DNA of 64,000 nt from Ignavibacteriota bacterium (GTDB lineage Bacteria > Bacteroidota > Ignavibacteria > UBA10030 > CAVZMI01). The notes beneath the pieces are model-generated. The model had not been told where the DNA came from. It ran no database searches and worked only from the letters and a program-made list of their open reading frames with translations. Below are positions 11,787 through 28,509 of this stretch, in pieces. The DNA lies in the NCBI GenBank assembly GCA_963776275.1, contig CAVZMI010000023.1:320001-384000 (forward strand). Reading direction: 5' to 3'. The position numbers and the translations under genes are program-made. Every line of letters starts with the position of its first letter. Positions within the stretch are counted from its first letter, which is position 1.

Positions 11787-12830
11787 ATGTCAAAATTGCT
11801 TCTTTGTATTGAGCAAGAACCGGTGATCATTGCCGAGGGAGCCGTCATAGAACGGCTGCGAAGAACACCCGGAATTTCCCTCGACCCCCACCTGCTCAAT
11901 TCCGCTCTATTGTATAATGATGAAGGAAAGAAATATCTTGAAGAGATCTATCGTCAATACATCGACTGTGCATATCGCCGAAATCTTCCGATGATCGTTC
12001 TCACTCCTACCTGGCGCGCAAATCCCGAACGAATCTCGCGGGCAGGTTTGCCTACCCGCCAGAGTTCAAAGGATGTCGGCGGGCGTGCCCATGATGTTAA
12101 TAAAGATTGTTACGATTTCCTTGCAGAAATACGATCCGGCTATGGTGAATATGCCAAAAAAATATTTATCGGCGGACTCATGGGCTGTTATGGTGACGCG
12201 TATAAACCCGAAGAGGCATTACCTTCCGGGACAGCACATTTTTTCCACCGGGAACAGGTCCGAGCACTTGCGTCGTCCGGCGTCGATTTTCTTTTAGGGT
12301 CGACACTGCCGGCTTTCAGCGAAGCACTTGGGATGGCACAGGCAATGGCCGATTCGGGGTGTCCGTATATCCTGAGTTTTGTCATTCGTGCAAATTGTAG
12401 ACTCCTTGACGGCACGCTTCTCCCGGATGCGATTAACAATATCGATTCAACAGTATCACCTAAGCCAGCAGGATATATGATCAATTGTGTTCATCCGGAA
12501 ATATTTAGGAAGGCGGTGATGAATGCAGGTCAAGATCAATCCTTCGACTCCCCCTCGACTCATCCCACTACGCGGGACTTGCTCGGGGTCGCTCAGGACA
12601 AGGGTCTAGGTCGAGGGTTGATACATAGTAGAATCCTTGGACTCCAGGCGAACACGTCGCTCAGAAGTCCGGAAGAACTTGACGGCCGGGAAGAGCTCGA
12701 CGTGGAAAATCCGGACAGATTTGGCGAAATGATGGCATCGCTTCATAAAGATTTTTCACTCAAAATACTCGGTGGATGCTGCGGCACGGATGAGCGGCAC
12801 ATAGAGTCCATTGTCAGCTCGCTTACCTAA
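11787..12830 (+). CDS. Homocysteine S-methyltransferase family protein carrying two in-frame REP-derived insertions
   Basis: TPTWRAN, GDAYKP, INCVHP, GGCCGT Zn-binding motif. Confidence 0.88.
   Translation: MSKLLLCIEQEPVIIAEGAVIERLRRTPGISLDPHLLNSALLYNDEGKKYLEEIYRQYIDCAYRRNLPMIVLTPTWRANPERISRAGLPTRQSSKDVGGRAHDVNKDCYDFLAEIRSGYGEYAKKIFIGGLMGCYGDAYKPEEALPSGTAHFFHREQVRALASSGVDFLLGSTLPAFSEALGMAQAMADSGCPYILSFVIRANCRLLDGTLLPDAINNIDSTVSPKPAGYMINCVHPEIFRKAVMNAGQDQSFDSPSTHPTTRDLLGVAQDKGLGRGLIHSRILGLQANTSLRSPEELDGREELDVENPDRFGEMMASLHKDFSLKILGGCCGTDERHIESIVSSLT
12051..12083 (+). repeat. In-frame REP-like palindrome (33 nt)
   Basis: CCTACCCGCC...GGCGGG; same family as CCTGTCCGCC...GGCGGA at 16226-16254 and the inverted copy at 52-157. 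Confidence 0.6.
12540..12602 (+). repeat. In-frame three-layer nested REP-like insertion (63 nt)
   Basis: TCCTTCGACTC[CCCCTCGACT[CATCCCACTACGCGGGAC]TTGCTCGGGGT]CGCTCAGGACAAG. Confidence 0.75.
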
Positions 12831-12831
12831 C

Positions 12832-12859
12832 TTGACATTTCGTTAATAATTGTTATTAT
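12832..12859 (+). promoter_or_regulatory. Putative cassette-array promoter (Pc-like)
   Basis: TTGACA(12832-12837), 16-nt spacer containing an extended -10 TG, TATTAT(12854-12859); about 130 nt upstream of the attI-like site. Confidence 0.6.
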
Positions 12860-12974
12860 ACGATAAAAGCGTTATTCTTTTTCCTCCAGAATCATCAGGA
12901 TAATGCATCGGCTTTTTTAAGAATGGAGCGTGAGATGCTCCACAGTATTTCAGAAACTATGGTTGACTGAGTCA

Positions 12975-12993
12975 ACCTAATCATAAGTTAGAA
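12975..12993 (+). other. attI-like integron recombination site
   Basis: L box ACCTAAT, 5-nt spacer CATAA, R box GTTAGAA; same geometry as attI1 (CCCTAAA-ACAAA-GTTRRRY). No long attC hairpin upstream. Confidence 0.7.
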
Positions 12994-13031
12994 CGCACCG
13001 ATATACATTCACAAATTCGGAGGATATCGAG

Positions 13032-13745
13032 ATGATCAATGACCTTCATGAACATACTATCGGCATCGCCCTAGGTGTTCGATTCAGGGCTAATTTTTCC
13101 ATTGAAGACCAATTGGGTGGAATAATCGATAAGATCCTATACTCGAAGGACTCATATTTCGGACCAAAAGTCTTCCCACTCGTCTACAACAACCCGAATG
13201 AAAAGGTCCTAATAAACGAGAACACCTTTGACAAACTGATTATCAACAACTCGAACATAATTCTCGAGGCAAACTTACTGGACTCGTTCAAAGGCGAGAC
13301 CATAGAAACGATACTCTCGAAATTCAACTCTCAAATTATAGACGGTGTCTTAAGGAACTACCGAGTCACCGAAATAAACCGCATTGGATTCATCCACAGA
13401 TACTTGTTTAAAATAGAGGATCTTGCTAAAACTTTTGTAAATAAAACGATCGGTGCTACTATCGAGGGAATTAACGACATAAATGTTCGCTTTACAAAAA
13501 AAATCCCGCTACCCGAGGCTATGGTAAAAAAGGACGTCAGTGATTACTTGAACGTCATCTTCAACGTTATCAAGCAGGCAGACCGAAACGAACTATTTGT
13601 ATCGGTTGACTTCCAGAAGTTATTCGATCCTTTCCTGACTTCTTCTTCTCAAATCGACTTTGATGATTTCACTAAGTTAGCACGCTCTTTCAATTCCAAG
13701 AGTTTCTTGGGTTGGTTCAATCAAAACTATGGGGTACTCAAATGA
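13032..13745 (+). CDS. Cassette 1 gene A: hypothetical, TIGR04255-like
   Basis: GGAGG RBS; N-terminal LGVRF strand and INRIGFIHRY motif resemble TIGR04255 proteins (recognised by eye). Confidence 0.6.
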   Translation: MINDLHEHTIGIALGVRFRANFSIEDQLGGIIDKILYSKDSYFGPKVFPLVYNNPNEKVLINENTFDKLIINNSNIILEANLLDSFKGETIETILSKFNSQIIDGVLRNYRVTEINRIGFIHRYLFKIEDLAKTFVNKTIGATIEGINDINVRFTKKIPLPEAMVKKDVSDYLNVIFNVIKQADRNELFVSVDFQKLFDPFLTSSSQIDFDDFTKLARSFNSKSFLGWFNQNYGVLK

Positions 13746-14182
13746 AATCAAGAAGCAGCCATACCGGTAAATCCATCGCGGACAAAGATTACTATGCAAG
13801 AGCCATCAGGAAGATGGAAGCCGAGCCCACCGTGGATGAAGCAGTTACTTTCTCTCAGACTGACGATACGCATCGAGATTTTAGCGTTCCCACGTCACGA
13901 AACAGAAGACCAGAGCCTGTTTTTTATCAGATTTCAGAGCACTTCAGAGAGAACTGGGTGAAATGGGTTCTCGCTGTTGCTGGGTTTGCATTGATGTATT
14001 TAATGGGCGATTCAAGAGCAACAATCACAGGCATCGACACCAAAGTGCAATATATTCAGGAGGACATAAAAGATCTAAAACAATCCAACCGCGAGAATTT
14101 ACAAAAGATTCAGAATCAGGAACTCCAAGTTCAAAAAAGCGAAATGCGCATCGAAAATCTCGAGAAGAAAAAGAGACCATAG
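13742..14182 (+). CDS. Cassette 1 gene B: hypothetical single-TM protein with C-terminal coiled coil
   Basis: ATGA overlap with gene A; TM segment WVKWVLAVAGFALMYLM; heptad-rich C-terminus. Confidence 0.7.
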   Translation: MKSRSSHTGKSIADKDYYARAIRKMEAEPTVDEAVTFSQTDDTHRDFSVPTSRNRRPEPVFYQISEHFRENWVKWVLAVAGFALMYLMGDSRATITGIDTKVQYIQEDIKDLKQSNRENLQKIQNQELQVQKSEMRIENLEKKKRP

Positions 14183-14213
14183 CCATCACACGAAACAACT
14201 TTTCGCCGTTGCG

Positions 14214-14433
14214 TTCTAACCGGTCGCTCAAGCTGACGTAATGAGCGCCCGCCTTCGTTATAAAACAAACTACAGCGGGCAGGTGGTTAAGCATGGCGCG
14301 CATAGGTCTTGTACAAAATTGAAAGCGCAGTAAATGAACTTGGTTCTTGTAGTACATTTTGAAAGTTATCGTTGCGGCTGCTCGTTTTTTGCGTCCCGCG
14401 CTTTTTGCGGGGCTTAGCCGCCATCCGTTAGTT
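14214..14433 (+). other. attC site 1 (intact, 220 bp)
   Basis: R'' TTCTAAC, 5 nt, L'' GCTCAAGC (extra C) ... L' GCTTAGC, CGCCATCC, R' GTTAGTT. Confidence 0.85.
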
Positions 14434-14469
14434 GGTGCCCATTCCATCATTTACATAAGGAGGACACTG

Positions 14470-14913
14470 ATGCCCCATCCCAAGAATCAACTCTATGTCT
14501 ACCTTTTCAATCGTATTGATAGCTCAATCGATAAAGGATATTTCCTTGAGTCTTCTTGGATTGCATATGCTATCATTGAAGACAGGTTAGATTCCATTCT
14601 TGTCAAGGTCACAAATTATAAGGGGCGTTTGATAAGTCGCAAATTGGAATACTTATCCCGCATTTCAAATCCATTTGTTCGCACCGAGTTCCCAGCTGAT
14701 TTTATTAAGAGAATTAACAATTGGACAAACCGCAGAAATAATCTGACACATGAGATGGCGAATGCACGCCTTTCAATTCAACAAATCACTGATCGCTCAA
14801 AGCAGATCGCACTTGAAGGAGAAAAGCTTGCGCATGACGTGTCAAGTGCCGTAATGCGGGCGAAAAAGCATCTGAAGAAAAAAAGTCGCCAGCCAACCAA
14901 CGACTCAAGCTAA
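14470..14913 (+). CDS. Cassette 2: HEPN-like protein
   Basis: AAGGAGG RBS before ATG 14470; helical, with an upstream AIIE motif and RNNLTH (R-x4-H). Confidence 0.65.
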   Translation: MPHPKNQLYVYLFNRIDSSIDKGYFLESSWIAYAIIEDRLDSILVKVTNYKGRLISRKLEYLSRISNPFVRTEFPADFIKRINNWTNRRNNLTHEMANARLSIQQITDRSKQIALEGEKLAHDVSSAVMRAKKHLKKKSRQPTNDSS

Positions 14914-15072
14914 CCGAATGAGTCCCGCAAAAAATACAAGGCAAGCTGTGCGCGCAAAATTAATGGCGCTCAAAGGTCTGGTGTAATTTGAGAGTCATCT
15001 TCGTAAAACTCGGTTTGTGTAGTACATTATTCTTAAATTTCATTGTGGCAAATTAGCCATCATCTGTTAGGC
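14895..15072 (+). other. attC site 2 (degenerate)
   Basis: AACCAAC-G-ACTCAAGC...AATTAGC-CATCATCT-GTTAGGC; body homologous to attC1 (ATGGCGC..AGGTCT, TGTAGTACATT). Confidence 0.75.
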
Positions 15073-15094
15073 GGCTGATATTCTGGAAGAATAT

Positions 15095-16141
15095 ATGGCA
15101 TCTCAATATGAAAACAGAACTAGTCCTGCATATGCCGATGTAATGCGCGGGTTAGTCAAGCCCTCTATGGCAAACAATCGGTTTATCTTAAAATGGTGGA
15201 CAACAAAACATGATGAACTTATCAAACAACAAATGTCAAAGTGGCAATGGTATTGGTTCCACTATATAAAGGATGAAGTTATCCTGCACACAGATTCTTC
15301 AATTATCGAGCATTGGAAGCGCGAAGATCCTGCATGCCGACGCGGTATAGGGACAGGTGCATGGTATAACGTCCTTGAATTTTTTGCATATGCGCGTGCT
15401 GAACAGATGAATCTAATAGGTTTAGTACGAGAACCAAAATGGAAATTGTGTCCATTATGTAATAACAAGTTCTTGGAAAATTCTCTCCCTGAACCACTTG
15501 CCAAAAAGCTTGGAGTAGATGGACTTGATTTTTGCGCTCCTTGTCTTACACCCAAAATTTTGCAAAGTACGGGAAACGACATTTTGACAAAAGAAGAGGT
15601 AAAGGAATATTTAAGGAAGTTATCCTCCATAATTCAAGCGATACCACACCAAGGATTTGGTGAAGGAGAGGAGGATATATTATACTTGAATTATGAACAA
15701 CGACTAGCAGCCCTGCAATTAATGTCGAATAAGCCATCAACGAAACACGTTAAGAAATTGTTTCTTTCTTGGCTTCATGCGTTGATAGAATCTGATATAC
15801 TCGAGGATGGAACGAGAAAAACAAGTCGAGGAACGATGTGTTTAGCAAAAGATGGTCATGCATGCCGCTCTCTCGCGGAGAAAACATTAGATGATTTTCT
15901 CTTTAATCATAGTGTCCCACATACACGCGAACCGTATTATCCAAATTCCAATTATCGTGCAGACTTCGATGTTAAAGGCGTGTATATAGAATACTTCGGA
16001 TTAATGGGAAATTATTTATATGACCAAAAGATCCAAGAGAAAAAGAAAATCGCTAAAGAAGTTGGTATTCGAATGATTCCTATTTATCCAAAGAACCTAT
16101 TAAATACCGTCTGGCTGAGTGAGACACTTCTTTCTATATGA
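15095..16141 (+). CDS. Cassette 3: Zn-ribbon protein with C-terminal PD-(D/E)xK/Vsr-like nuclease domain
   Basis: CPLC...CAPC; RSLAEKTLDDFL...EPYYP...RADF...YIEYFGL. Confidence 0.7.
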   Translation: MASQYENRTSPAYADVMRGLVKPSMANNRFILKWWTTKHDELIKQQMSKWQWYWFHYIKDEVILHTDSSIIEHWKREDPACRRGIGTGAWYNVLEFFAYARAEQMNLIGLVREPKWKLCPLCNNKFLENSLPEPLAKKLGVDGLDFCAPCLTPKILQSTGNDILTKEEVKEYLRKLSSIIQAIPHQGFGEGEEDILYLNYEQRLAALQLMSNKPSTKHVKKLFLSWLHALIESDILEDGTRKTSRGTMCLAKDGHACRSLAEKTLDDFLFNHSVPHTREPYYPNSNYRADFDVKGVYIEYFGLMGNYLYDQKIQEKKKIAKEVGIRMIPIYPKNLLNTVWLSETLLSI

Positions 16142-16150
16142 TTTGTTTTG

Positions 16151-16292
16151 CAGCCGCCTCCTAAGTAACTCATGAGTAGGAGTGCGTGGGCAGTGGTACA
16201 TGTTAAGTTATCGCCTGCTCGCCGGCCTGTCCGCCGTAGTGAAACGAAGGCGGAAGTGTTATTCACGTAGGCGTAGCGACCATCCATTAGTT
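16151..16292 (+). other. attC site 3 (degenerate, REP inserted at 16226-16254)
   Basis: CAGCCGCCT is complementary to the cassette start but AAC is lost; right arm AGTGTTATTCACGTAGGCGTAGCGACCATCC-ATTAGTT matches the arm ending at 17782. Confidence 0.65.
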
Positions 16293-16304
16293 AACAAGGG
16301 AAAA

Positions 16305-16769
16305 ATGAAAAAGAAATTATTATATTTTACACTACTTGCATTCTCAATATTTATTTTAATATGCGGATGCAATAAGAAAGAAATTAATTCACCCAATTCT
16401 ATGTCAATTGAATATCTTTCTTTTCAAGGCAATGGTTGTACTTCTTCAAATGTTTTATCAAAAACTAATGACGAAGCAGTTTTGAATTGGCAGTACGTGA
16501 ATGGCGTTCTTCAAATAGGCGTATTATTTAGTGCTCAATGTGTTGCTTCTATGAAGGATAGTGTTCTGGTATCAAATAATATCATTGATATATACCTTTC
16601 GGATACAAGTAGTGTTAGAGCTAAATGTAATTGTCCCTACAAAGTGATATTTAATTTTAGAGTAGAAGGAAATAATGAAATAAAAATATCATTTTATTAT
16701 AAACCTCAATCAGAATATTATTTGTTAGCTGATACAACCTTGATATTAATTGATTTACATGTTCGTTAG
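16305..16769 (+). CDS. Cassette 4: AT-rich lipoprotein of unknown function
   Basis: MKKK, hydrophobic stretch, ICGC lipobox; CNCPY motif. Confidence 0.75.
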   Translation: MKKKLLYFTLLAFSIFILICGCNKKEINSPNSMSIEYLSFQGNGCTSSNVLSKTNDEAVLNWQYVNGVLQIGVLFSAQCVASMKDSVLVSNNIIDIYLSDTSSVRAKCNCPYKVIFNFRVEGNNEIKISFYYKPQSEYYLLADTTLILIDLHVR

Positions 16770-16794
16770 GGTTTTCACTTTTTATTATTTTGCG

Positions 16795-16918
16795 GTATAA
16801 CCAGCGGCTCCCCGCAAACAATACGGGGTTTCACACAAAACGTTCAACAAGCTGACCCCGACCAAGAGTGTGTCGGAGCGGCCCGCCACAAAACTGGCGG
16901 GTAAACCATCCGTCAGAT
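16795..16918 (+). other. attC site 4 (two insertions)
   Basis: R'' GTATAAC-CAGCG-GCTC[38 nt]AAGCTGAC ... CGGAGCGG[24-nt palindrome]CCATCC-GTCAGAT. Confidence 0.65.
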
Positions 16919-16944
16919 GTAAAAGGAAATTAGCAGGAGGAAAT

Positions 16945-17682
16945 ATGAAATATTTAATTCTTCTTTTAACTTCTCTTTTGTTTTTATCTTGTTCAGATGA
17001 ACAAATAGTAAATCCAATTTTATTCCCAATTGATGAAGCAACAATTGGCGTCAGGAGCAAAATATTCTATCCTTCACTGGAATCGAATCAGATATTAAGC
17101 ATAGAGGATTTTGAATATAATATTAATGGTCAATTACAAAAAAAGATTTATTATAGCGGTAATAGGGAAATGATTTCACATTACGAGCTTTTCAACTATG
17201 ATAACAATGGAAAGCTTATATACAAATTGAATTTTCACAATAACATAAATTCTCCGACGGGATTTATTCTTCTGGATTCTACTATTTATTTATATTCTGC
17301 AAATTTACTTACTACAGAAAAAATAACTTATCCTTATGCAAGTTACGATATACTATACAACTTTGAATATGATGGAAAATATCTTATAAAAAAAACAAAA
17401 TATCATAACGAGGAATTAGAATCGTACATTATTTATAATTATAAAGATGGTATAATTCACAAGGAAATAATTTACTATAAGAATAATAGCATAACTGAAT
17501 CAAAAGAATATAAATATAAAAATGCAGTTTTAGTGGAAACAGTTTACTATGCCTCGAATAATGAAGCGAAGAGAAGAATAAGCTATAGTTACAATAATAA
17601 TGGAAAAATAGTAATAGAAAAAGTCGATGAACTTTTCGCTTATAGTTCGTCATTACCATACGTGGTAAAATATGAGTATTAA
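16945..17682 (+). CDS. Cassette 5: AT-rich lipoprotein with YD-like repeats
   Basis: AGGAGG RBS; FLSC lipobox; repeated (F/Y)xY(D/N)xxGKL motifs. Confidence 0.75.
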   Translation: MKYLILLLTSLLFLSCSDEQIVNPILFPIDEATIGVRSKIFYPSLESNQILSIEDFEYNINGQLQKKIYYSGNREMISHYELFNYDNNGKLIYKLNFHNNINSPTGFILLDSTIYLYSANLLTTEKITYPYASYDILYNFEYDGKYLIKKTKYHNEELESYIIYNYKDGIIHKEIIYYKNNSITESKEYKYKNAVLVETVYYASNNEAKRRISYSYNNNGKIVIEKVDELFAYSSSLPYVVKYEY

Positions 17683-17719
17683 AACGTATTGGTGCCGTAG
17701 TCCTAAAGGACTGCTATGC

Positions 17720-17782
17720 TGAGGTTAACCGCTCTATCCGCCAGAGTGTTATTCACGTAGGCGGAGCGGCCATCCGTTAGGC
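17720..17782 (+). other. attC site 5 (right arm only)
   Basis: AGTGTTATTCACGTAGGCGGAGCGGCCATCC-GTTAGGC. Confidence 0.65.
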
Positions 17783-17844
17783 GGCAATTCATAAATCCTG
17801 GCGGTTACATGACAAATAAAATCAACAATCTCGAAGGACGTACA

Positions 17845-18486
17845 ATGAAAGCTCGCATTCTTCTTCTTATAATTATCACGTTCTTTTTTGTCCTGATTTC
17901 TGAAGCACAAATCAGAGTTGGCCTACAGACAGGTCTGAATTTGGGGAGCTTAACATTACCAGACAATCTTGCCTCTAATGCTACAAGGAAAAATCTTACC
18001 GGTTTCACTATTGGAGGCGTTGGTGAACTTGCTCTTACAAATTCAATTTATCTTCAAATTGAACCTCGCTATATACAAAAAGGCTTCAAATCAGAGATTA
18101 CAGATGCTACAGGCACGGCAAAGGGAACTGAGACTATCAATTATTTTGAGTTGCCCATCCTAATCAAAGTAGAGTTTGGAGGGTCTTACTTACGGTCATT
18201 TGTTCTTGCAGGACCAAATATTGGCTTTTTGCTTTCAGCCTCTGAGGAAGTTATTGATTTTAGTGGACAGTCATTTCCTGTGCTCGACACTAAATCAAAT
18301 TACAAATCATACGATGTTGCTCTTGATTTCGGTGCAGGCGTAGAATACAGAATAACATCAACTCTTTCCTTGTTTTCTTCCGGACGATATTCTCTCGGTC
18401 TTGTAAATGTCTATGATGTTCCTGGTTATTCAGGAGAAACACGCGGTATCCAAATATATATTGGTGCGTTATTTAGTCTGGATTAA
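17845..18486 (+). CDS. Cassette 6: outer-membrane beta-barrel (porin family) protein
   Basis: Signal peptide; IEPRYIQKG, NYFELPILIK, AGPNIGFLLSA, GRYSLGL. Confidence 0.8.
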   Translation: MKARILLLIIITFFFVLISEAQIRVGLQTGLNLGSLTLPDNLASNATRKNLTGFTIGGVGELALTNSIYLQIEPRYIQKGFKSEITDATGTAKGTETINYFELPILIKVEFGGSYLRSFVLAGPNIGFLLSASEEVIDFSGQSFPVLDTKSNYKSYDVALDFGAGVEYRITSTLSLFSSGRYSLGLVNVYDVPGYSGETRGIQIYIGALFSLD

Positions 18487-18491
18487 TTGCC

Positions 18492-18515
18492 GCCTATCCA
18501 ACGTATCAAGCTGAT
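18492..18515 (+). other. attC site 6 (left arm only)
   Basis: GCCTATC (AAC changed to ATC)-CAACG-TATCAAGCTGAT; 18485-18498 is 13/14 complementary to 17776-17789. Confidence 0.7.
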
Positions 18516-18561
18516 GTAAGGAGCTGGGATACTTTAAGCATGGCAATCTTAGGAGGAATCT

Positions 18562-19482
18562 ATGAAGCATCATTCAGGAAAGAGGATAAACATAAACCTA
18601 GTCAAATATTCCATAATCGGTCTCGCAATAATACTGGTCTTTGTATTCTTATCTTTCTTCGCAAAGCAATTCTCAAAAACTAATCTGACAGTTGGTTGGG
18701 GCGACAGGAAAATATCGATTGAGACGGCCGGTCTAACAAATGCGGTGACTGCATCAAAAGAGACTTATATTGACTCGGAAATAGGATTTGCTTTTACTAA
18801 ACCAGAAAATATTTCCATAAGGATTGAACCGCCACTTATCGGGATTCGAAGTTATCTTAACTCTGATGGCGGAAACGTGAGTGAAAAGGAGTTTACTCAA
18901 ATTATCTCGGATGCCGGTGGATACTATGGCAAAGGAGAAATAGGTAATATGCTTGAAAACATGAAATGCTTTAGGTTCATTGTTGGTGAACCTATCTCGG
19001 TTGAACTGACTGATCAATCAACAAGCGACTATCTTGAATGGGTAATCCCAGGACTTGTGCAACAAAATAAGCTGCAAAAGAAAGATATTCCAAACTTTAG
19101 AAAGCAACAATTCGGAAATATGCCTGCCACTTTATCGAATTCCTTCTCAATTACAGTATTTAAAAAGAGCTATTTAGAAAGTCTTCCTTTTAAATATAAT
19201 ATTGTCCGGCTTGTCCTTGAAAGTAGTCATTCGATGCGAGCCTGGGTGAAAAGCATCGCGGCGGATGATAGGGCTACGCTTACTGCGCTAACCGTAGACA
19301 TAAAGAACATAAAGGTGAACGGATTAATCAAGGATTTGCAAATTGAAAAAATGTCTTTGTACACAGAGAATAGTAAATATTTCTTCCACGTAGAGTCTTC
19401 ATATTCCCCTCAAACAAACAGTCCCGAAATCGTTTGGAAAGTGCTGGAAGAAATGATTCATTCGTTTCGGGCAGCGATTTAG
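18562..19482 (+). CDS. Hypothetical N-terminally membrane-anchored protein
   Basis: AGGAGG RBS; one N-terminal TM helix; no recognised motif. Confidence 0.7.
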   Translation: MKHHSGKRININLVKYSIIGLAIILVFVFLSFFAKQFSKTNLTVGWGDRKISIETAGLTNAVTASKETYIDSEIGFAFTKPENISIRIEPPLIGIRSYLNSDGGNVSEKEFTQIISDAGGYYGKGEIGNMLENMKCFRFIVGEPISVELTDQSTSDYLEWVIPGLVQQNKLQKKDIPNFRKQQFGNMPATLSNSFSITVFKKSYLESLPFKYNIVRLVLESSHSMRAWVKSIAADDRATLTALTVDIKNIKVNGLIKDLQIEKMSLYTENSKYFFHVESSYSPQTNSPEIVWKVLEEMIHSFRAAI

Positions 19483-19676
19483 GGATGGCTGAGCGGCTAC
19501 CTCTGCGCGATGAATAAAAGCATCGGCTGACGGGCAAAGCTGTCCCAATAAACGCTCCGTTGAAAAGCACATGGTAAATTGTTACATTTAGCATGGCGAG
19601 TATATGTACATTGCAGATTAATCTTAAGAGCAGATGATCGAGTTTTTTGAAAAAAAATAAAAGAAAGGGTAATGCC

Positions 19677-20915
19677 ATGTGCCTCAATACGATAAGAAAC
19701 AAATTATCAAGCCTTATATTGATAGTATTTGCTTTGGTGGCGGCAGGTTGTTGCCCATCTCCCACCGGACCATCAGAAATACCGGGCGCAGCGACCATTG
19801 ATTTAAACGTCCCTCAGCAGCTTATCAGGGGCTTTGGCGGCGTAAATATGCCCGGATGGATTCCCGATTTGACTTCTAATCAAGTCCAGACGGCTTTTGG
19901 CACCGGGACCGGTCAAATTGGTCTGACCATACTGCGCATTCGCGTCTCTTACGATTCGATGGAATTTAATCTGGAAGTTCCCACTGCACTGCTGGCAAAA
20001 TCGCTCGGAGCAACAATATTTGCATCACCCTGGACACCTCCGGCTTCAATGAAAACAAACAATAATATCGCAGGAGGCGCTCTCGATACTAATTATTATG
20101 CGGCTTATGCGGCCCATTTAAAATCTTTCGCCGATTATATGTCAAACAACGGCGTTCCTTTATATGCCGTATCGGTTCAGAACGAACCAGATTACTCGGC
20201 AACATATGAAACCTGCGTTTGGACCCCATCACAATTGCTCAAGTTTGTCAAAAATAATGTGCAGACAATCGGCACCAGAATCATCGTACCCGAAGTGGGA
20301 AATTTCGATCATGCATTTTCCGACCCTATACTCAACGATCCTGTCGCCGCAGCGAATGTATCCATCATCGGCGGACACATTTACGGAGGAGGGCTCACAA
20401 GTTATCCTCTGGCCATCAGCAAAGGTAAAGAGGTATGGATGACCGAACATTGTGATACTGCCAGAACATGGACTGCTATTCTCGGAACAGCCAAAGAAAT
20501 TAATGATTGTATGAATGCGGACATGAACGCTTACGTGTGGTGGTATATCAGAAGGTTTTACGGCCTGATCGACGACAACAGTAACATCACCAAACGAGGT
20601 TATGTAATGTCTCAATATGCTAAATTCATTCGTCCGGGATTCTATAGGGTAAGTGCTACAGCCAATCCTCAGACAAATGTCGATGTCACTGCATATAAAA
20701 AAGGCTCCAAGGTGGTCATCGTTGCTTTAAACAGAAATTCATCTTCAACCGATCAAACATTTACGATCTGGAACGGGGCACCATATATGACGTTTACGCC
20801 CTATATCACATCAAGTACTAAGAATTGTGCACAGGGAAGTGATATTGCCGTACCAAACGGTAGTTTTACCGTTACTCTTGATTCATCTAGTGTGACGACT
20901 TTCGTGTTGAACTAA
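19677..20915 (+). CDS. GH30 (subfamily 8-like) glucuronoxylanase lipoprotein, copy 1
   Basis: AAGC lipobox; IRGFGG, ASPWTPP, QNEPD (acid/base), WMTE (nucleophile), WWYIRRFYG. Confidence 0.88.
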   Translation: MCLNTIRNKLSSLILIVFALVAAGCCPSPTGPSEIPGAATIDLNVPQQLIRGFGGVNMPGWIPDLTSNQVQTAFGTGTGQIGLTILRIRVSYDSMEFNLEVPTALLAKSLGATIFASPWTPPASMKTNNNIAGGALDTNYYAAYAAHLKSFADYMSNNGVPLYAVSVQNEPDYSATYETCVWTPSQLLKFVKNNVQTIGTRIIVPEVGNFDHAFSDPILNDPVAAANVSIIGGHIYGGGLTSYPLAISKGKEVWMTEHCDTARTWTAILGTAKEINDCMNADMNAYVWWYIRRFYGLIDDNSNITKRGYVMSQYAKFIRPGFYRVSATANPQTNVDVTAYKKGSKVVIVALNRNSSSTDQTFTIWNGAPYMTFTPYITSSTKNCAQGSDIAVPNGSFTVTLDSSSVTTFVLN

Positions 20916-20952
20916 AAGTTAAGACAATACGTTTGTGTTGTTTCGATAAATC

Positions 20953-20984
20953 ATCTCCTTGCTTTATCCAAAGGCAAGGAGATT
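20953..20984 (+). terminator. Hairpin after GH30 copy 1
   Basis: ATCTCCTTGC-TTTATCCAAAG-GCAAGGAGAT; identical copy after GH30 copy 2. Confidence 0.55.
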
Positions 20985-21105
20985 CTGTCCTCTACGGTAG
21001 TTAGACTTCCGTGTAGAAGATTCTGTGGCCGGCGGATGCTTTATAGTAAGAGTCAATGATCAGACTGGAGAAGCACAAGTCATATAGGGACATGAAATAT
21101 TTGCC

Positions 21106-21245
21106 GCTTAGCCAGTCCCTCCCCACAAATAACACGTGATTCCACATAAAACGTTCAACAAGCTAACGGAATGAACGCCTAATTGAAAAGCACGGTGAAA
21201 ATGTTTACATTTTGCATAACGAGCATAGGTGCAGTCCAGATTTAT
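21106..21245 (+). other. attC remnant (left arm and body) with the 38-nt insertion
   Basis: GCTTAGC-CAGTC-CCTC[38 nt]AAGCTAACGGAATGAACGCC aligns to attC1 TTCTAAC-CGGTC-GCTCAAGCTGACGTAATGAGCGCC; GCATAACGAGCATAGGT matches attC1 GCATGGCGCGCATAGGT. Confidence 0.6.
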
Positions 21246-21299
21246 CTAAAGAGAAGATGATCAGGTATTTTGAAAAAAATCAAATGAAAGGGTAAAGTT

Positions 21300-22556
21300 A
21301 TGTGCCTTAATACGATAAGAAACAATTTATTAAACCTTATACTAGTATTTACTTTGATGGCGGCAGGTTGTTCAAAGAAAGACACAATTAACGGACCTTC
21401 AGATGAATCGGGGACTGCCTCCGTTGATTTAGCTAATACCCACCAGGTGATAAGGGGCTTTGGTGCTGCGAACATACTTCCCTGGCGTCCTGATATGACT
21501 GTTGATCAAATCAACACGGCTTTTAGTACCGGAACAGGACAATTAGGTTTCACCATACTTCGCCTGCGCGTACCGCCTGACACATCTCAGTTCGCCATTC
21601 AGGTTGCTACTGCTCAGTTAGCACATGCTCAGGGAGTGACAATCATAGCTTCTCCCTGGACTCCACCTGCTTCGATGAAGACCAACAATAATATCGTTGG
21701 AGGCGAACTCAAGACTGATTCTTATGCAGCCTATGCGGCGCATCTGAAAGCGTTTGGCGATTATATGTCGAGCAACGGTGTTCCGTTGTATGCTGTATCC
21801 GTTCAAAACGAACCCGATGTAACGGTCACCTATGAGTCCTGCTATTGGAATGCAACACAAATGGTTAACTTTGTGAAGAACAATGTGCCCTCTATCGGAA
21901 TCAATATCATCGCAGATGAGTCAATGAATTTCAGCCACACCATTACAGATGCGATATTGAATGATCCTGTTGCCGCTGCGAACCTTTCCATTGTCGGTGG
22001 TCATCTGTACGGAGGAGGGCTAGTGAGTTATCCCCTAGCTATGAGCAAAGGGAAAGATTTATGGATGACCGAATATCTTGATACTATTACTACTTGGTCT
22101 CATGTTCTTGCCACAGGCAAACAAATTAATGATTGTATGAATGCGAGTATGAATGCGTATATCTGGTGGTATATTGTTCGCTTCTACGGACCGATCGATG
22201 ATGGTGAAAGAGGAGGTACTAAAGGAAACGTAACCAAACGAGGTTATGTCATGTCGCAGTACGCCAGATTCGTTCGTCCGGGATACTATAGGGTAAGTGC
22301 CACAGCCAGCCCTCAGACAAATGTTGATGTAACTGCATATAAAAACGGCTCCAAGGTGGTCATTGTCGTTTTGAACAGAAATTCATCTTCAATCGATCAA
22401 ACATTTACGATCCAGAACGGGACAGTCACGACGTTTACGCCCTATGTCACATCAAGTAGTAAGAATTGTGTACAGGGAAGTGATATTACTGTATCAAACG
22501 GTAGTTTTACCGTTACTCTTGATTCATCGAGTGTGACGACTTTCGTGTCGAACTAA
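21300..22556 (+). CDS. GH30 (subfamily 8-like) glucuronoxylanase lipoprotein, copy 2
   Basis: AAGC lipobox; QNEPD, WMTE, WWYIVRFYG; tandem paralogue of 19677..20915. Confidence 0.88.
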   Translation: MCLNTIRNNLLNLILVFTLMAAGCSKKDTINGPSDESGTASVDLANTHQVIRGFGAANILPWRPDMTVDQINTAFSTGTGQLGFTILRLRVPPDTSQFAIQVATAQLAHAQGVTIIASPWTPPASMKTNNNIVGGELKTDSYAAYAAHLKAFGDYMSSNGVPLYAVSVQNEPDVTVTYESCYWNATQMVNFVKNNVPSIGINIIADESMNFSHTITDAILNDPVAAANLSIVGGHLYGGGLVSYPLAMSKGKDLWMTEYLDTITTWSHVLATGKQINDCMNASMNAYIWWYIVRFYGPIDDGERGGTKGNVTKRGYVMSQYARFVRPGYYRVSATASPQTNVDVTAYKNGSKVVIVVLNRNSSSIDQTFTIQNGTVTTFTPYVTSSSKNCVQGSDITVSNGSFTVTLDSSSVTTFVSN

Positions 22557-22591
22557 AAGTTAAGACAATACGTTTGTCTTGCTTCGATAAA

Positions 22592-22625
22592 TCATCTCCT
22601 TGCTTTATCCAAAGGCAAGGAGATT
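22592..22625 (+). terminator. Hairpin after GH30 copy 2
   Basis: Same ATCTCCTTGC...GCAAGGAGAT hairpin as after copy 1. Confidence 0.55.
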
Positions 22626-22888
22626 CTATCCTCAACGATAGTTAAACTTCCGGGATAAGAATCCCCAGCCGGCGGACGCAGCCGTGCTCCATTATTTTTG
22701 AAACGTAAAATATCTCTTAGCTGCAGCGATAAAGAATAACTCGATAGAGAAAATCCGGTAACTTATGGAAAGATGATAGCGTCGCTTCGTAGAGGTTTTT
22801 TGACTCAAAATACTCGGAGGACTCTGTGGGACGGATGAACGCCATATAGAATTAATCGTTCACTCACTCTAACAACAGGGAGAGTACC

Positions 22889-23563
22889 ATGAAAAATTTC
22901 ATCATTTACACTATCATTTCATTAAGTATGATCTCTCTCGTCCATGCACAGGATATCGATATTTCTTCGAAGAGCGCAAAAGCCAGGATCGGAGATATCG
23001 ACATCTCGGTGAAAAAAGCGCCTTTTATTCAGGGAGACTGGGAACTCTCGATGTCCGGAGCGCTCGGACAATATACGACGAAAACTACCACCTCTATGAA
23101 TTCCTGGAATTATGGTAATGAATCAAAAGAAAATTTCGCCACCATCTCTCTTACAGCCGGATACTATTTTATCGATTGGCTGTCGCTTGAACCGGAAGTG
23201 AACCTCTTTGCATATGAGGGAGGACGGCCGGGAGAATCGGTCCTATTAAATCTTTCGTTCACATATCCGCTAGAACACTCTATCGTGGCTCCTTTCATTC
23301 GGGGAGGGTTTGGACTTGGTAATGCCGGCTTTATTACGGGAAATCTTCCATTTTCCTCTTTTGTTTCTGATAAATTCGATGTGAAAACATTCAATGCAGG
23401 TGCCGGAGTAAAACTTCTGATCGCTCAAAGTGTCGCGCTTAAGATAGAGCTGAATTATCGATATCAAACCTATACAGAAAATTATACCGGCTGTATCTTA
23501 TATTCAGTCAATAATAAAAATTCAATGATCAGACTCTTTGTCGGGTTTTCTGTTCTATTGTAA
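22889..23563 (+). CDS. Outer-membrane beta-barrel protein
   Basis: Signal peptide; amphipathic strands (AGYYF, SLEPE, APFIRGGFG, FNAGAGVK, RLFVGFSVLL). Confidence 0.75.
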   Translation: MKNFIIYTIISLSMISLVHAQDIDISSKSAKARIGDIDISVKKAPFIQGDWELSMSGALGQYTTKTTTSMNSWNYGNESKENFATISLTAGYYFIDWLSLEPEVNLFAYEGGRPGESVLLNLSFTYPLEHSIVAPFIRGGFGLGNAGFITGNLPFSSFVSDKFDVKTFNAGAGVKLLIAQSVALKIELNYRYQTYTENYTGCILYSVNNKNSMIRLFVGFSVLL

Positions 23564-23652: not shown

Positions 23653-25008
23653 TTAAATATCCTTACCCTGGACGATAGGAATAAATCGAAACGATCCATC
23701 CGTACCAACATCGACAGAGATCGTATTCCCTTCGGCAATTTCTCCTGCAAGAATTTTTTCAGATAATTTATTCACGACATGTTTTTGAATTATCCGTTTA
23801 AGCGGACGGGCACCAAACTGCAGATCGTATCCCGCCTTTGCAAGCCACGTCTTTGCCGAATCGGTGAAATTGAGTATGATATTCTTTGCTTTCACCAATA
23901 CCTGTAGATTACGGAGCTGCAAATCAACAATTTGAACTATATCGTCGCGTGTAAGAGTTTTAAACATGATGATTTCATCGACACGATTAAGGAACTCCGG
24001 ACGGATCGTCTGTTTGAGCAGGTCGAATAGTTTAATCCTGACAGCCTCCATGACCTCATTGCGGTTTACATCGGTCATGTTCTGCGTCCACTCCATGATG
24101 ATATTCGATCCGAGGTTCGAGGTCATGATGATGATCGTATTCCGGAAATTAACAGTCCGTCCTTTGCTGTCGGTCAGCCGGCCTTCATCCAACACCTGCA
24201 GAAGCACATTGAACACCTCCGGATGCGCCTTTTCGATTTCATCAAGCAGCACAACGGAATAAGGTTTCCGCCGGACTGACTCGGTAAGCTGTCCGCCTTC
24301 CTCGTAACCGACATAACCGGGCGGCGCACCGATGAGACGTGATACGGAGAATTTTTCCATATACTCGCTCATGTCAATGCGCACCATTGCATTTTCATCG
24401 TTGAAGAGCGACTCGGCAAGTGCACGGGCAAGTTCGGTCTTTCCGACTCCGGTCGAGCCAAGAAAAATAAATGATCCGATCGGTCTTCGCTCATCCTGCA
24501 ATCCCGCTCGCGCACGACGCACGGCATCGCTCACTGCCTGGACTGCCTCGACCTGATCGACCAACCGTTCGTGTATCCGTTCTTCAAGATGCAGTAATTT
24601 CGACCGCTCGCTTTCGAGCATGCGGCTGACCGGGATACCGGTCCATTTTGCCACGATCTCTGCAACGTCCTCGGCATCGACTTCTTCCTTCAACATTTTC
24701 CGATTTTTCTGAACTACTGCGAGCTCTTGTGTTGCGGCTTTCAGTCTTTTTTCGAGGTTAGCAATTACTCCATAGCGCAGTTCGGCGACTTTTGCAAGAT
24801 CGCCTTCGCGTTCTTTCTTTTCAGCCTCGTTTCGCGCTTTCTCGATCTCGGATTTCATTGTCCGTATAGATTGTATGAGATTCTTCTCATTCTGCCAGTG
24901 TGTTTTCAGCTGAGTGCGGACTTCGTTGAGATCTGCAATTTCTTTTTCAATCTCATAGAGTCGCTTTTTTGTCGTTTCCTGCATTTTCTCTTGTGTAAAT
25001 TCAGTCAT
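23653..25008 (-). CDS. clpB: ClpB C-terminal half (rest of M-domain plus NBD2)
   Basis: [21 protein letters not shown] Walker [26 protein letters not shown]; own GAGGA RBS and ATG. Confidence 0.9.
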
Positions 25009-25024
25009 TGTTCCTCACATCCTT

Positions 25025-26338
25025 TTATGCCTGTAATTCGCGTTTCAACGCTTCACGTTCGATTTCCAATTGTTTGATTTTTCTCTCAATTTCATCGAGT
25101 TCTTCCGGCATTGAATCGATTTCAATCCGCAGTTTTGAGGCGGCTTCATCGATCAGGTCTATCGCCTTATCGGGAAGGAATCGATCCGAGATGTACCGAT
25201 GACTCAGTTGTGCTGCTGCGACAATCGCACCGTCGGTAATACGCACGCCGTGGTGGATTTCATATCGTTCTTTTAATCCTCGCAGAATCGAAACCGTATC
25301 CTCGACTGTCGGCTCATCGACAAGAACCGGCTGGAACCGGCGTTCCAGAGCCGCATCTTTCTCAACATGCTTCCGATATTCATCGATCGTTGTGGCGCCT
25401 ATAGCCCGGAGGTCACCGCGTGCCAGTGCGGGTTTTAGCATATTCGCGGCATCGACAGCTCCCTGTGCGGCTCCGGCACCTACGAGCGTATGAAGTTCAT
25501 CAATGAATAGAATAATTTCGCCGTTGGATTGAATTACTTCGTTTAACACGGCTTTCAATCGCTCTTCAAATTGTCCACGAAAGCTCGTCCCTGCGACAAG
25601 CGTTCCCATATCGAGCGCAACAATCCGCTTGGTTCGTAAAGACTCCGGCACATCGCCGTTAACAATTCTCTGAGCAATTCCTTCGGCGATTGCAGTTTTT
25701 CCGACGCCGGGTTCACCGATTAGAACAGGGTTATTTTTCGTACGCCGTGAAAGAACCTGAAGGACTCTTCGGATTTCATCATCGCGTCCGATAACCGGGT
25801 CGAGTTTACCGCGCCGGGCAAGATCGTTCAGATCGCGTCCGAATTTTTGCAATGCCTGATATTTATCTTCAGCATTTTGATCTGTCACGCGCTGGCTGCC
25901 GCGGATTTCTTTAAGGACTTTATATACATCCTCTTTTTTGACTCCCTGATCAATCAGGAGTTTTGCTCCTTTATTTTGCTTTTCTTCAATAAGTCCAAGG
26001 AGCAGATGTTCGGTACTGACATATTCGTCTTTAAGCTGGTTCGCTTCCTTGAGTGCCGTTTCGAATACCTGCCCGAGTGATTGTGAGACAAACTGGTTCC
26101 CAAGCTCGGCACCCGATATTTTGGGGAGTTTCTCAATCGCTTCATTGATCTTGATTTTGATATAATTCACATTGGCTCCGACCTTCTGTAGAATCGGAAC
26201 AGTAATCCCGGCCGCATCCTGGATAAGCGCAGCAAGGAGATGTTCCGGCTCTATAGACTGACTGCCATAACTGGTTGCAATCTCCTGAGCATTTTGAACA
26301 GCTTCCTGCGCTTTAATTGTAAATTTATTAAAATTCAT
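25025..26338 (-). CDS. clpB: ClpB N-terminal half (N-domain, NBD1, first M-domain helix)
   Basis: [40 protein letters not shown]; ends [11 protein letters not shown]-stop. Confidence 0.9.
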
Positions 26339-26581: not shown

Positions 26582-28509
26582 TTATTTATCTTTATCATCT
26601 ACAACTTCAAAGTCGGCGTCCTCGACAGCTTTCCCATCGGGTTTCTTTTGCTCGCCGGCTGGCTGCTGTTGTCCGCTCTGTTGAGTACCGGCGGCCTGTT
26701 GTTGAGTCGCCTGCTGGTACATTTGTGTCGAGACTTCATTCCAGGCGGCATTGAGTCCATCCATTGCAGTCTTGATATCGGCCGAGACTCCCGTCTTAAT
26801 CGCGTCTTTGAGTTTGCTGTTTGCGCCCTCAATTTTCGATTTCATTTCGGGCGTCATTTTATCACCGAGATCTTTTAATTGTTTGTCAGTCTGGAACGAC
26901 AGTGTATCGGCCTGGTTTTTCATGTCGATTTCTTCTTTGCGCTTTTTATCTTCAGCGGCATGGGCCGTTGCATCAGTCTTCATCTTTTCGATTTCTTCCT
27001 TCGTCAAACCAGACGATGAGGTAATCCGTATACTCTGTTCCTTGTTGGTTCCTTTATCCTTAGCCGATACGTGCAAAATACCGTTCGCATCGATATCAAA
27101 TGTAACTTCGATCTGAGGTATTCCGCGCGGAGCCGGTGGAATTCCATCGAGATGGAACCGGCCGAGCGTACGGTTATCGACGGCCATCGGACGTTCACCC
27201 TGCAGGATATGTATTTCGACAGATGTCTGACTGTCCGACGCTGTCGAAAAGATCTCGCTTTTCTTTGTCGGGATCGTCGTGTTCGCTGTGATGAGCGTTG
27301 TCATGACTCCGCCAAGAGTTTCGATACCGAGTGAAAGCGGCGTAACATCGAGCAAGTAGAACATCCGTAACATCTCCCGCAAGAACGCCTCCCTGAATTG
27401 CAGCACCGACAGCGACTACTTCATCAGGGATTGACACCTTTATGTCCTTCTCTCCCAAAAATATCCTTAACAAGCTGTTGTACCCGCGGCATACGGGTCA
27501 TACCACCGACAAGAATCACTTCATCGATCTGGTTTGGCTGCAGGTTTGCATCATGAAGAGCTTTTTCAACCGGCGAAATACATCGCTTCACAAGATCATC
27601 GACGAGCTGCTCAAATTTTGCGCGTGTGATCGACATATTCAGATGTTTCGGACCTTCCTGTGTTGCGGTAATAAACGGCAGATTGATTTCGGTCTGCATC
27701 ATTGTCGAAAGCTCCATTTTTGCTTTCTCTGATGCTTCGCGAAGACGCTGAAGTGACATTGGATCTTTCCGTAGATCGACCCCTTCCTGTTTCTGGAACT
27801 CGTCGGCAACATAATCGAGCAATCTCTGGTCGAAGTTATCTCCACCGAGATGGGTATCGCCATTCGTCGATTTTACCTCGAAAACTCCTTCACCAAGTTC
27901 GAGAATCGATATATCAAAAGTGCCGCCGCCGAGGTCAAAGACTGCAACTTTTGAATCCTTGTGTTTTTTATCGAGGCCATAGGCGAGTGCGGCTGCTGTT
28001 GGCTCATTGATGATACGCCGGACATTCAAACCTGCAATTTCTCCTGCTTCTTTTGTCGCCTGTCGCTGTGCATCGTTGAAATATGCCGGGACTGTAATTA
28101 CGGCTTCCGTCACTTTCTGACCTAAATAATCTTCTGCAGTCTGTTTCATCTTCTGCAGAATCATTGCGCTGACTTCGGGTGGTGAATATACACGGTCTCC
28201 GATCTGGACGCGTGCCGTGTTATTATCGCCATGCACCACCTTATAAGGGACAAGCTTCATTTCTTCATTGACCTCATCATAAAATCGTCCCATGAAACGC
28301 TTGATCGAGAATACAGTGTTTTGAGAATTTGTAACAGCCTGACGTTTTGCAGCCTGCCCGACAAGCCGCTCGCCATTTTTCGCAAAGCCGACCACTGATG
28401 GAGTCGTTCGTCCACCTTCGGAATTTGCAATGACGGCCGGTTCGTTTCCTTCCATAACGGCAACAACCGAGTTGGTGGTGCCGAGGTCGATTCCGATAAT
28501 TTTACTCAT
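26582..28509 (-). CDS. dnaK: Chaperone DnaK (two frameshifts at about 27430 and 27355, probably assembly errors)
   Basis: [27 protein letters not shown]; [13 protein letters not shown] lies in a middle frame; [13 protein letters not shown]. Confidence 0.95.

Follow-up and report, generated by a model that had tools for sequence, protein, structure and literature searches.

Two attC sites of a cassette array in an Ignavibacteriota bacterium carry a 38-nucleotide (nt) hairpin-and-tail module that splits the L'' box at a single position. The array lies in a 64,000-nt stretch of DNA (contig CAVZMI010000023.1 of assembly GCA_963776275.1, positions 320,001 to 384,000 of the forward strand), which is called the window here and to which all coordinates without a prefix refer. 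Copies of the module stand on the plus strand at 16811-16848 and 21122-21159. Sequence comparison with other attC sites shows the module to be self-contained: at one fixed nucleotide, otherwise similar sites either have it or lack it. The explanation favoured here, at a rough probability of 45%, is that of a discrete and non-autonomous insertion, a hairpin placed at the extrahelical base of L'' that would be moved in trans.

The module and its position in the L'' box

In the coordinates below and throughout, G000 is the genome that holds the window, C-numbers are its contigs, G001 is a genome of the same genus, and L-numbers are loci. A slash marks the insertion point. The two interrupted sites and two uninterrupted sites of the same array have the following parts.

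16796-16810, plus strand: 5' half of the first interrupted attC, with R''-like TATAAC (16796-16801), spacer CAGCG (16802-16806) and the 5' part of L'', GCTC (16807-16810); one mismatch to the 14-mer CTAACCAGCGGCTC
16811-16848, plus strand: module copy 1, 38 nt; stem 16810-16814 with 16824-16828, 9-nt loop, and tail 16829-16848 ending in GTTCAAC, according to the fold and covariance model R1
16849-16856, plus strand: 3' part of L'', AAGCTGAC
16882-16901, plus strand: extra local G+C hairpin CCCGCCA..TGGCGGG, flanked by the L'-like GGAGCGGCC and by CCATCCGTCAG; no such hairpin is present in the site at 17745-17780
16912-16918, plus strand: degenerate R' of the first interrupted attC, GTCAGAT
21107-21121, plus strand: 5' half of the second interrupted site, CTTAGC-CAGTC-CCTC
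21122-21159, plus strand: module copy 2, 38 nt; hairpin decayed, tail conserved, and an identical 38-mer at the orthologous place in G001
21160-21167, plus strand: 3' part of L'', AAGCTAAC
14215-14433, plus strand: uninterrupted reference attC, TCTAAC-CGGTC-GCT[C]AAGC ... GCTTAGC-CGCCATCC-GTTAGTT
14893-15072, plus strand: second uninterrupted attC, CCAACC..GACTC/AAGCTAAC ... GTTAGGC

The two 38-mers are equal at 31 of 38 positions by hand count, and a repeat finder aligns them together with their flanks at 78% identity across 68 nt. Both contain the 16-mer AAAACGTTCAACAAGC, which occurs exactly twice in the window against 0.10 occurrences expected; none of 100 shuffles held two or more. The 5' flank reads ..GGCTC at the 16811 copy and ..CCCTC at the 21122 copy, and the 3' flank is AAGCTrAC. 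Because a C stands on both sides, the insert boundary is ambiguous by one base.

The nature of the split box is seen in uninterrupted sites of the array and of the genome. These begin with CTAAC-CAGCG-GCT[C]AAGCTG (window example 14215-14233) and end with CAGCTTAGCC..CCATCCGTTAG (14412-14433), the spacer-to-core form being CAGCTTAGCC-GCCATCC-GTTAG. An inverted core pair of R'' (RYYYAAC) and R' (GTTRRRY) is present in the reference sites, where TCTAAC at 14215 is matched by GTTAGTT at 14427 and CCAACC by GTTAGGC at 15066. L'' and L' also pair, with an unpaired base on the R''-L'' arm: read from the sequence, CGGCT[C]AAGCTG pairs with CAGCTTAGCCG. In their sequence, the uninterrupted spacers are built as attC sites are: they have R''/R' cores, a spacer without pairing, and an L box whose R''-L'' arm contains a single unpaired C. 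Ten uninterrupted sites of the insert-bearing type were read in the genome.

The single unpaired C of these sites lies exactly at the insert junction. A first-pass annotation of the window had stated that both 38-mers split CTC/AAGC right after the extrahelical C and that both end in GTTCAAC, and the sequence bears out each point. The position corresponds to the conserved unpaired G of L'' in the attC bottom strand, as described in one part of an earlier study (PMC2727003). The attC sites of this lineage are very long, from about 125 to more than 300 nt, and are pieced together as mosaics from hairpin modules that they share; when whole long sites are folded at minimum energy, only strings of local hairpins result.

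The two copies differ in preservation. Copy 1 has a hairpin of -5.2 kcal/mol and scores 73.8 bits with covariance model R1, while the decayed hairpin of copy 2 reaches -1.2 kcal/mol and the copy scores 62.6 bits. The decayed stem and the identical copy in G001 mark the 21122 copy as an older, inherited one. The first interrupted site (16796-16918) has an L' of another type, GGAGCGGCC, in addition to its degenerate R'. From about 16910 on, the downstream cassette is also found in a contig of another metagenome, where the attC end upstream of it is different; this is consistent with a cassette boundary at R'. For the second interrupted site (21107-21167), no recognisable L' or R' was found before the next open reading frame (ORF) at 21300. 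The homology of the two glycosyl-hydrolase-30 (GH30) units of the array begins exactly at the 3' part of L'' (19537 versus 21160).

Copies and distribution of the module

The module consists of a 5-bp G+C hairpin with an A-rich loop, followed by the tail TTTCACAnAAArCGTTCAAC, and measures 34-40 nt in all. A blastn-short check against the genome, as proposed in the first-pass annotation, was run and found further short copies. G000 holds six copies, four of which stand in the attC context described above (C4:1066, C6:152417 on the minus strand, and window positions 16811 and 21122). The remaining two, at C23:129972 and C23:134121, are 34 nt long and belong to a second attC type, type B, with the structure CCTAACCATTTTAAAAAGGAmAGAGTC-module-AAG. 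In type B sites the module is constant in G000, G001, G002 and G005.

An IUPAC pattern of the tail was run on the genome itself, 41 relatives, species-representative genomes, metagenome contigs and viral contigs. As a 23-mer, it is expected to give about 0.2 chance matches in 596 Gb (hand arithmetic). Further copies were found in G001, in three metagenome-assembled genome (MAG) records titled Bacteroidota/Bacteroidetes, in nine metagenome loci, and in one 1.5-kb contig binned as Desulfonauticus (L033), a label that belongs to a binned contig and on which no spread across phyla is claimed. Neither the viral contigs (tail pattern) nor plasmids (blastn) contained a copy. Removal of exact-context duplicates reduces the 32 pattern matches to 20 distinct contexts, of which 14 are non-orthologous attC contexts. 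In these 14, the module always has the same orientation, is preceded by ..GCT and C, T or A, is followed by AAG and C or T, and has unrelated cassettes upstream.

A covariance model of the module has matches in 20 of 141 sampled genomes of the order (E<=0.001), with 14, 14, 12 and 11 copies in the richest genomes. The copies fall in three families of the order and include family-specific variants such as TCTCGCAAAAAACACTCAAC in G113. Judged from these matches, the module is old and order-wide. In G113, an array beside intI has several module-bearing attC sites whose L', CAACTTAGC, pairs with GCT[C] and AAGCTG astride the insert; the insert is therefore enclosed by the L stem. A loose regex census of attC 5' halves gave many chance matches genome-wide, and its counts for G000 were set aside.

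A unit present or absent at one nucleotide

Three filled sites resemble an empty site more than they resemble any other filled site. Across 80 nt downstream, the filled site on C6 has 0.93 identity to the empty site C30:11503 and 0.61 to the best other filled site. The corresponding values are 0.86 and 0.68 for L029a, whose empty counterpart is C4:3001, and 0.85 and 0.71 for L044, whose empty counterpart is in L071. Two rows of this comparison, C18:162572 and C34:82508, were chance CGTTCAACAAG matches and were ignored. Because these three filled sites are closer to empty sites than to other filled ones, simple descent from one ancestral attC, which the first-pass annotation had named as the simpler alternative, fails to explain the pattern. 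That annotation had linked failure of the insertion idea to two findings together, namely a single descent group of insert-bearing sites and the lack of a longer element with the same ends. As to the second, no longer element was found in the collections searched; as to the first, the insert-bearing sites are not one group by their downstream sequence. Orthologous filled-empty pairs between G000 and G001 were not found, as the cassettes of window 15000-18600 have no G001 orthologues and their matches there are attC modules only.

Conservation also follows the limits of the insert. Mean pairwise identity is 0.90 in the insert, 0.68 in the 20 nt upstream and 0.63 in the 20 nt downstream (91 pairs, after six of the 20 contexts were dropped, namely three orthologues of own-genome sites, two type B copies and L033). 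One identical 38-mer recurs in six attC sites with different cassettes, whose flanks are 0.73 and 0.68 identical. The first-pass annotation had taken the insert for a discrete unit at one fixed L'' nucleotide; this view is supported, and the insert recurs in many unrelated attC sites.

The stem of the module covaries. In a set of 45 model matches, 32 of them distinct, 90% of cells are paired and changes on both sides occur in three of the five pairs. The covariation score of 0.287 was reached in 0 of 500 shuffles, and slid controls scored at most 0.06. This alignment indicates that the stem is kept by compensatory changes and that the hairpin is under selection.

Other small units occur at or near the same nucleotide. 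At C30:6329 and C30:8591, the junction is occupied by a unit of about 75 nt that begins with the same CCCG hairpin and ends in GGAAC. A related unit, about 68 nt long, interrupts the partner box L' of L038 at the mirror-image point (GCAGCT/TAGC). Hairpins of 20-26 nt are found at the same or adjacent junctions. A hairpin-and-tail unit is nested inside the loop of a module at L091:9126, and L033 has two units in tandem. These arrangements show that other small hairpin-led units use the same and neighbouring junctions and that units can be nested or tandem.

In the tandem pair of L033, the hairpin of one unit is the exact reverse complement of the other, and the two could jointly form one 19-bp stem. 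The L033 contig also has two truncated copies of the start of an IS200/RAYT-like gene (RAYT, REP-associated tyrosine transposase; REP, repetitive extragenic palindrome).

Integrase and candidate enzymes

No integrase was found on either flank of the array, and a true intI was found in neither G000 (96% complete) nor G001 (99% complete). Matches to TIGR02249 in these two genomes fall below the cut-off and do not include model positions 181-235, the IntI-specific segment. Among 41 relatives, 13 have a true intI, as do all five of the module-rich genomes that were tested, and in G113 the gene adjoins module-bearing arrays. With no true intI found in G000 or G001 and one present in 13 of 41 relatives, the array of the window resembles a group of attC sites that has no integrase of its own, although the lineage does possess integrons.

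The genome has nine Y1_Tnp matches. One of these genes, a RAYT-like Y1 gene at C23:132289-133203, lies between the module copies C23:129972 and C23:134121, in a second large cassette region at 120-152 kb of C23. REP-like hairpins of the type GTAGGTCGGnATnnnATnCCGACC are found in and beside this gene.

One of the genome's two IntI-like tyrosine recombinase genes, at G000:C22:9512-10735, is interrupted, and an intact copy is present at C23:235648-236583. The C-terminal residues of the interrupted gene recur at the end of the inserted ORF, which starts with a GIY-YIG-like motif (a label given by eye from the sequence).

An attI origin of the module was rejected, as the region upstream of the G002 intI contains no tail-like sequence. 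That region (L077, G002:C5 at about 860550-861160, upstream of a true intI) has approximately 25 short units built on GTCATTTCA / GTCATTGCA with a spacing of about 25 nt.

Origin of the module

In attC sites, the extrahelical bases are what the integrase reads for strand choice and for building the synapse. In the favoured explanation, the module would land at the bulged, unpaired position of a folded, single-stranded attC. Its presence there replaces a bulge of one base with a branch of about 38 nt. A trans-acting mobiliser is presumed, and the candidates are the integron integrase of the lineage or a single-strand-specific HUH (Y1) transposase. The module is frequent beside intact intI and is thus at least tolerated over evolutionary time.

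Several observations weigh against an insertion moved in trans. The module has no target duplication and no terminal inverted repeats, and its copy number is low (six in the genome). Part of the low flank identity arises from the variable central spacer and from non-attC bases within the 20-nt windows, and the alignment behind the covariation figures was fitted to the covariance model. No enzyme is linked to the module: homologues of the RAYT-like gene occur only at C38 and C2 of the genome and at none of the compared G001 and G002 loci near module copies, and the hairpins that flank the genome's own Y1 genes are of another type than the module. Copies within one genome share genome-specific loop variants, five being identical in G062, and such variants would also be expected from concerted evolution or from cassette genesis off a host-specific attC template. 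The constancy of the module in type B attC sites across families fits an inherited architecture. Read-level signs of excision or insertion were not obtained: assembled contigs did not span 16692-16859 and so are silent on polymorphism of the insert, no RNA run was listed as containing the sequence, and the best DNA run contained 0.18 of the words.

The main rival is that the module is an inherited part of attC architecture. The hairpin and tail would then be an old accessory arm of one attC class, such as a site bound by IntI or by a factor of the host, or an aid to folding, that is passed on with cassettes and homogenised within genomes. This is a serious possibility, though an unlikely one. 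It accords with the occurrence of the module in three families with family-specific variants, with its constancy in the type B sites of the four genomes named above, with its predominance in some arrays (in G062:C8, five of the seven flagged sites have it), and with its presence in arrays beside intact intI. The covarying stem and the conserved tail, both apparently under selection, and the mosaic build of the attC sites from shared modules suit it as well. However, of sites with 85-93% downstream identity, some have the insert at this precise junction and others do not, and identical 38-mers stand in flanks that are just 68-73% alike. To accommodate empty sites, an inherited arm would call for a second template or for loss, with downstream subtypes mixed by recombination among mosaic attC sites. 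The conserved flanks are only 14 nt and 8 nt long, which is too short for ordinary RecA-mediated homologous exchange. Unrelated hairpin units at the same junction and nested units also speak against an inherited arm. The two explanations are compatible in principle, as an old mobile unit can become fixed.

A micro-insert made by the integrase itself, raised in the first-pass annotation, is improbable. In this case, IntI would have used the L box as a secondary site and inserted there, by recombination, either a very small hairpin circle or part of a different site. The restriction of the phenomenon to attC sites and the intI genes of the five module-rich genomes suit such an origin, and so does the left junction of the 38-mer, which reads G/TTGAAC on the bottom strand, a perfect G/TTRRRY core, with a unit that ends in G. 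This left junction on the bottom strand is the sole fit; the micro-cassette form, with G/TTRRRY at both junctions, was not found. The target on the bottom strand is G/AGCC, not G/TT. Sibling units at the same junction start with GTTCCAA or GTCCC on that strand rather than GTTRRRY, and many G113 copies end in ..CTCGAC, which gives GTCGAG. Furthermore, the genus of the window has copies, yet no true intI was found in G000 or G001, and IntI normally cleaves the R box and not the L box.

The module is not the footprint or a miniature derivative of an IS1111-attC insertion sequence (IS) or a group IIC-attC intron, an origin so improbable that it can be set aside: both families target attC sites according to portions of two studies (PMC3001079, PMC11187229) and the genome has two IS110-family transposase genes, but the flanks of those genes are unlike the 38-mer, no group II maturase domain was found in the genome, no longer element with this right end occurs in species-representative genomes, metagenome contigs, viral contigs or the genome itself, the known elements lie antisense near the attC 5' end as one portion has it (PMC3001079), and compensatory change in a stem is not expected of a dead scar.

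A wider proposal is put forward tentatively and is the more speculative one. The attC sites of the order may host hairpin-led units of 20-75 nt that home to the bulged extrahelical position. Such units might depend for their movement on a trans-acting enzyme, either the integrase or an HUH enzyme specific for single strands, or might form an extra arm that is read by a 'same-orientation' IntI clade, and either way they would exert control over which cassettes still move. Locking of cassettes by the module, as imagined in the first-pass annotation, is putative and is weakened by how common the module is in arrays that adjoin an intact intI.

A conserved 38-nt branch at the extrahelical base beside an intact intI could mean that integrases tolerate or use a very different substrate geometry. 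Alternatively, it could mean that cassettes are immobilised by a small unit of selfish or regulatory character. Both possibilities are relevant to the origin and diversification of attC sites and to the stability of chromosomal arrays. In addition, module-bearing sites may be split or overlooked by attC detectors that were trained on canonical sites.

Comparison with known elements

IS1111-attC elements are about 1.5 kb long, encode a DEDD transposase and a guide RNA, and lie antisense near one end of attC, as stated in portions of PMC3001079 and PMC11187229. Group IIC-attC introns are ribozymes of about 2 kb with a reverse transcriptase and are inserted in the bottom strand, as the same portion of PMC3001079 describes. 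Like the module, the IS1111-attC group (ISPa21, ISPst6, ISKpn4) is site- and orientation-specific at one point of attC and makes no target duplication. Unlike it, the module is 34-40 nt long, stands in sense orientation inside L'' and has no longer relative among the sequences searched. Tetu and Holmes reportedly described degenerate IS1111-attC footprints in arrays in 2008. For group IIC-attC introns, the target is the stem-loop of the folded attC. Intron features are absent from the 38-mer.

The first-pass annotation had proposed a footprint or derivative of such an element and had suggested a comparison with IS110/IS1111 ends. Searches with blastn-short of both 72-nt regions in the genome, and with the tail pattern in genomes and metagenomes, returned short copies only. 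In all 20 distinct contexts, a hairpin or decayed hairpin directly precedes the tail on its 5' side, so no longer element with this right end is seen. The flanks of both IS110-family genes proved unrelated to the 38-mer, and no longer DEDD-transposase element with these termini was found. A group IIC-attC intron remnant is likewise rejected, as the genome has no match to the group II maturase family GIIM and window 12500-23000 has no Rfam match at E<=1.

Other identities were also tried and rejected. The ends CCCG.. and ..TCAAC are not inverted copies of each other and one C alone is common to both junctions, which does not suit a miniature inverted-repeat transposable element (MITE). A scan of window 12500-23000 for intrinsic terminators flagged neither copy; the hairpin amounts to a 5-bp stem and 9-nt loop with just TTT after it. 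Scans for promoters and terminators gave no more sites than shuffles and likewise did not flag the copies.

In form, the module is nearest to the single-hairpin units of the REP and IS200 type. REP sequences and the hairpin ends of IS200-IS605-type elements, which are served by HUH (Y1) enzymes, are also small single hairpins of 20-40 nt that have no target duplication or terminal inverted repeats and can be nested or tandem. These hairpins act as single strands. Unlike REP sequences, the module has no GTAG-type head, is low in copy number, is found in attC sites only, and differs in sequence from the hairpins that flank Y1 genes. In target choice, it is nearest to IS1111-attC, and the defining features of either group are absent from it.

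At canonical attC sites, the identity and spacing of the extrahelical bases affect excision, as reported in part of PMC3053210. Described attC sites have one base at the extrahelical position, whereas the module gives this base a branch of 38 nt, at a point lower than the top of the stem. In a limited full-text literature search, no earlier account of a conserved insert at this position of L'' came to light.

The cassette array and neighbouring genes

The array and its paralogous cassettes have the following extent.

12831-22880, plus strand: cassette array; large ORFs all on the plus strand, with long modular attC-like sites between them
19647-22556, plus strand: two tandem paralogous glycosyl-hydrolase-30 cassettes (19647-20915 and 21300-22556), with module copy 2 at their junction

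The ORFs of the array encode an outer-membrane beta-barrel protein, the two paralogous GH30 hydrolases and several proteins without a Pfam match. An S-methyltransferase gene (11787-12830) stands at one edge of the array, and a diverged second copy of its last ~130 nt (22734-22868) stands at the other. Specifically, the end of this homocysteine S-methyltransferase gene is doubled at 12690-12823 and 22734-22868 with 72-76% identity. The whole array thus lies between direct copies of one gene end, an arrangement also shown by integrative islands.

Both GH30 genes are preceded by a conserved leader after AAGC (19560-19588 and 21183-21211) with a promoter-like TTGAAA-17-TACATT, and the internal blocks TTAAGCATGGCGnGCATAGG and AATGAACTTGGTTCGTnTAGTACATTTTGAAAG are common to many long attC sites. 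The leader and the internal attC blocks may represent internal promoters or a structured leader.

Outside the array, the genes for ClpB and DnaK on the minus strand (23653-26338 and 26582-28509) each consist of two ORFs. The break in DnaK is one extra C in a run of C, with AATCCCTGATGAA in the window versus AACCCTGATGAA in G001, and is either a homopolymer indel error of the assembly or the mark of a pseudogene. At the ClpB junction, the translated frame contains in-frame stops.

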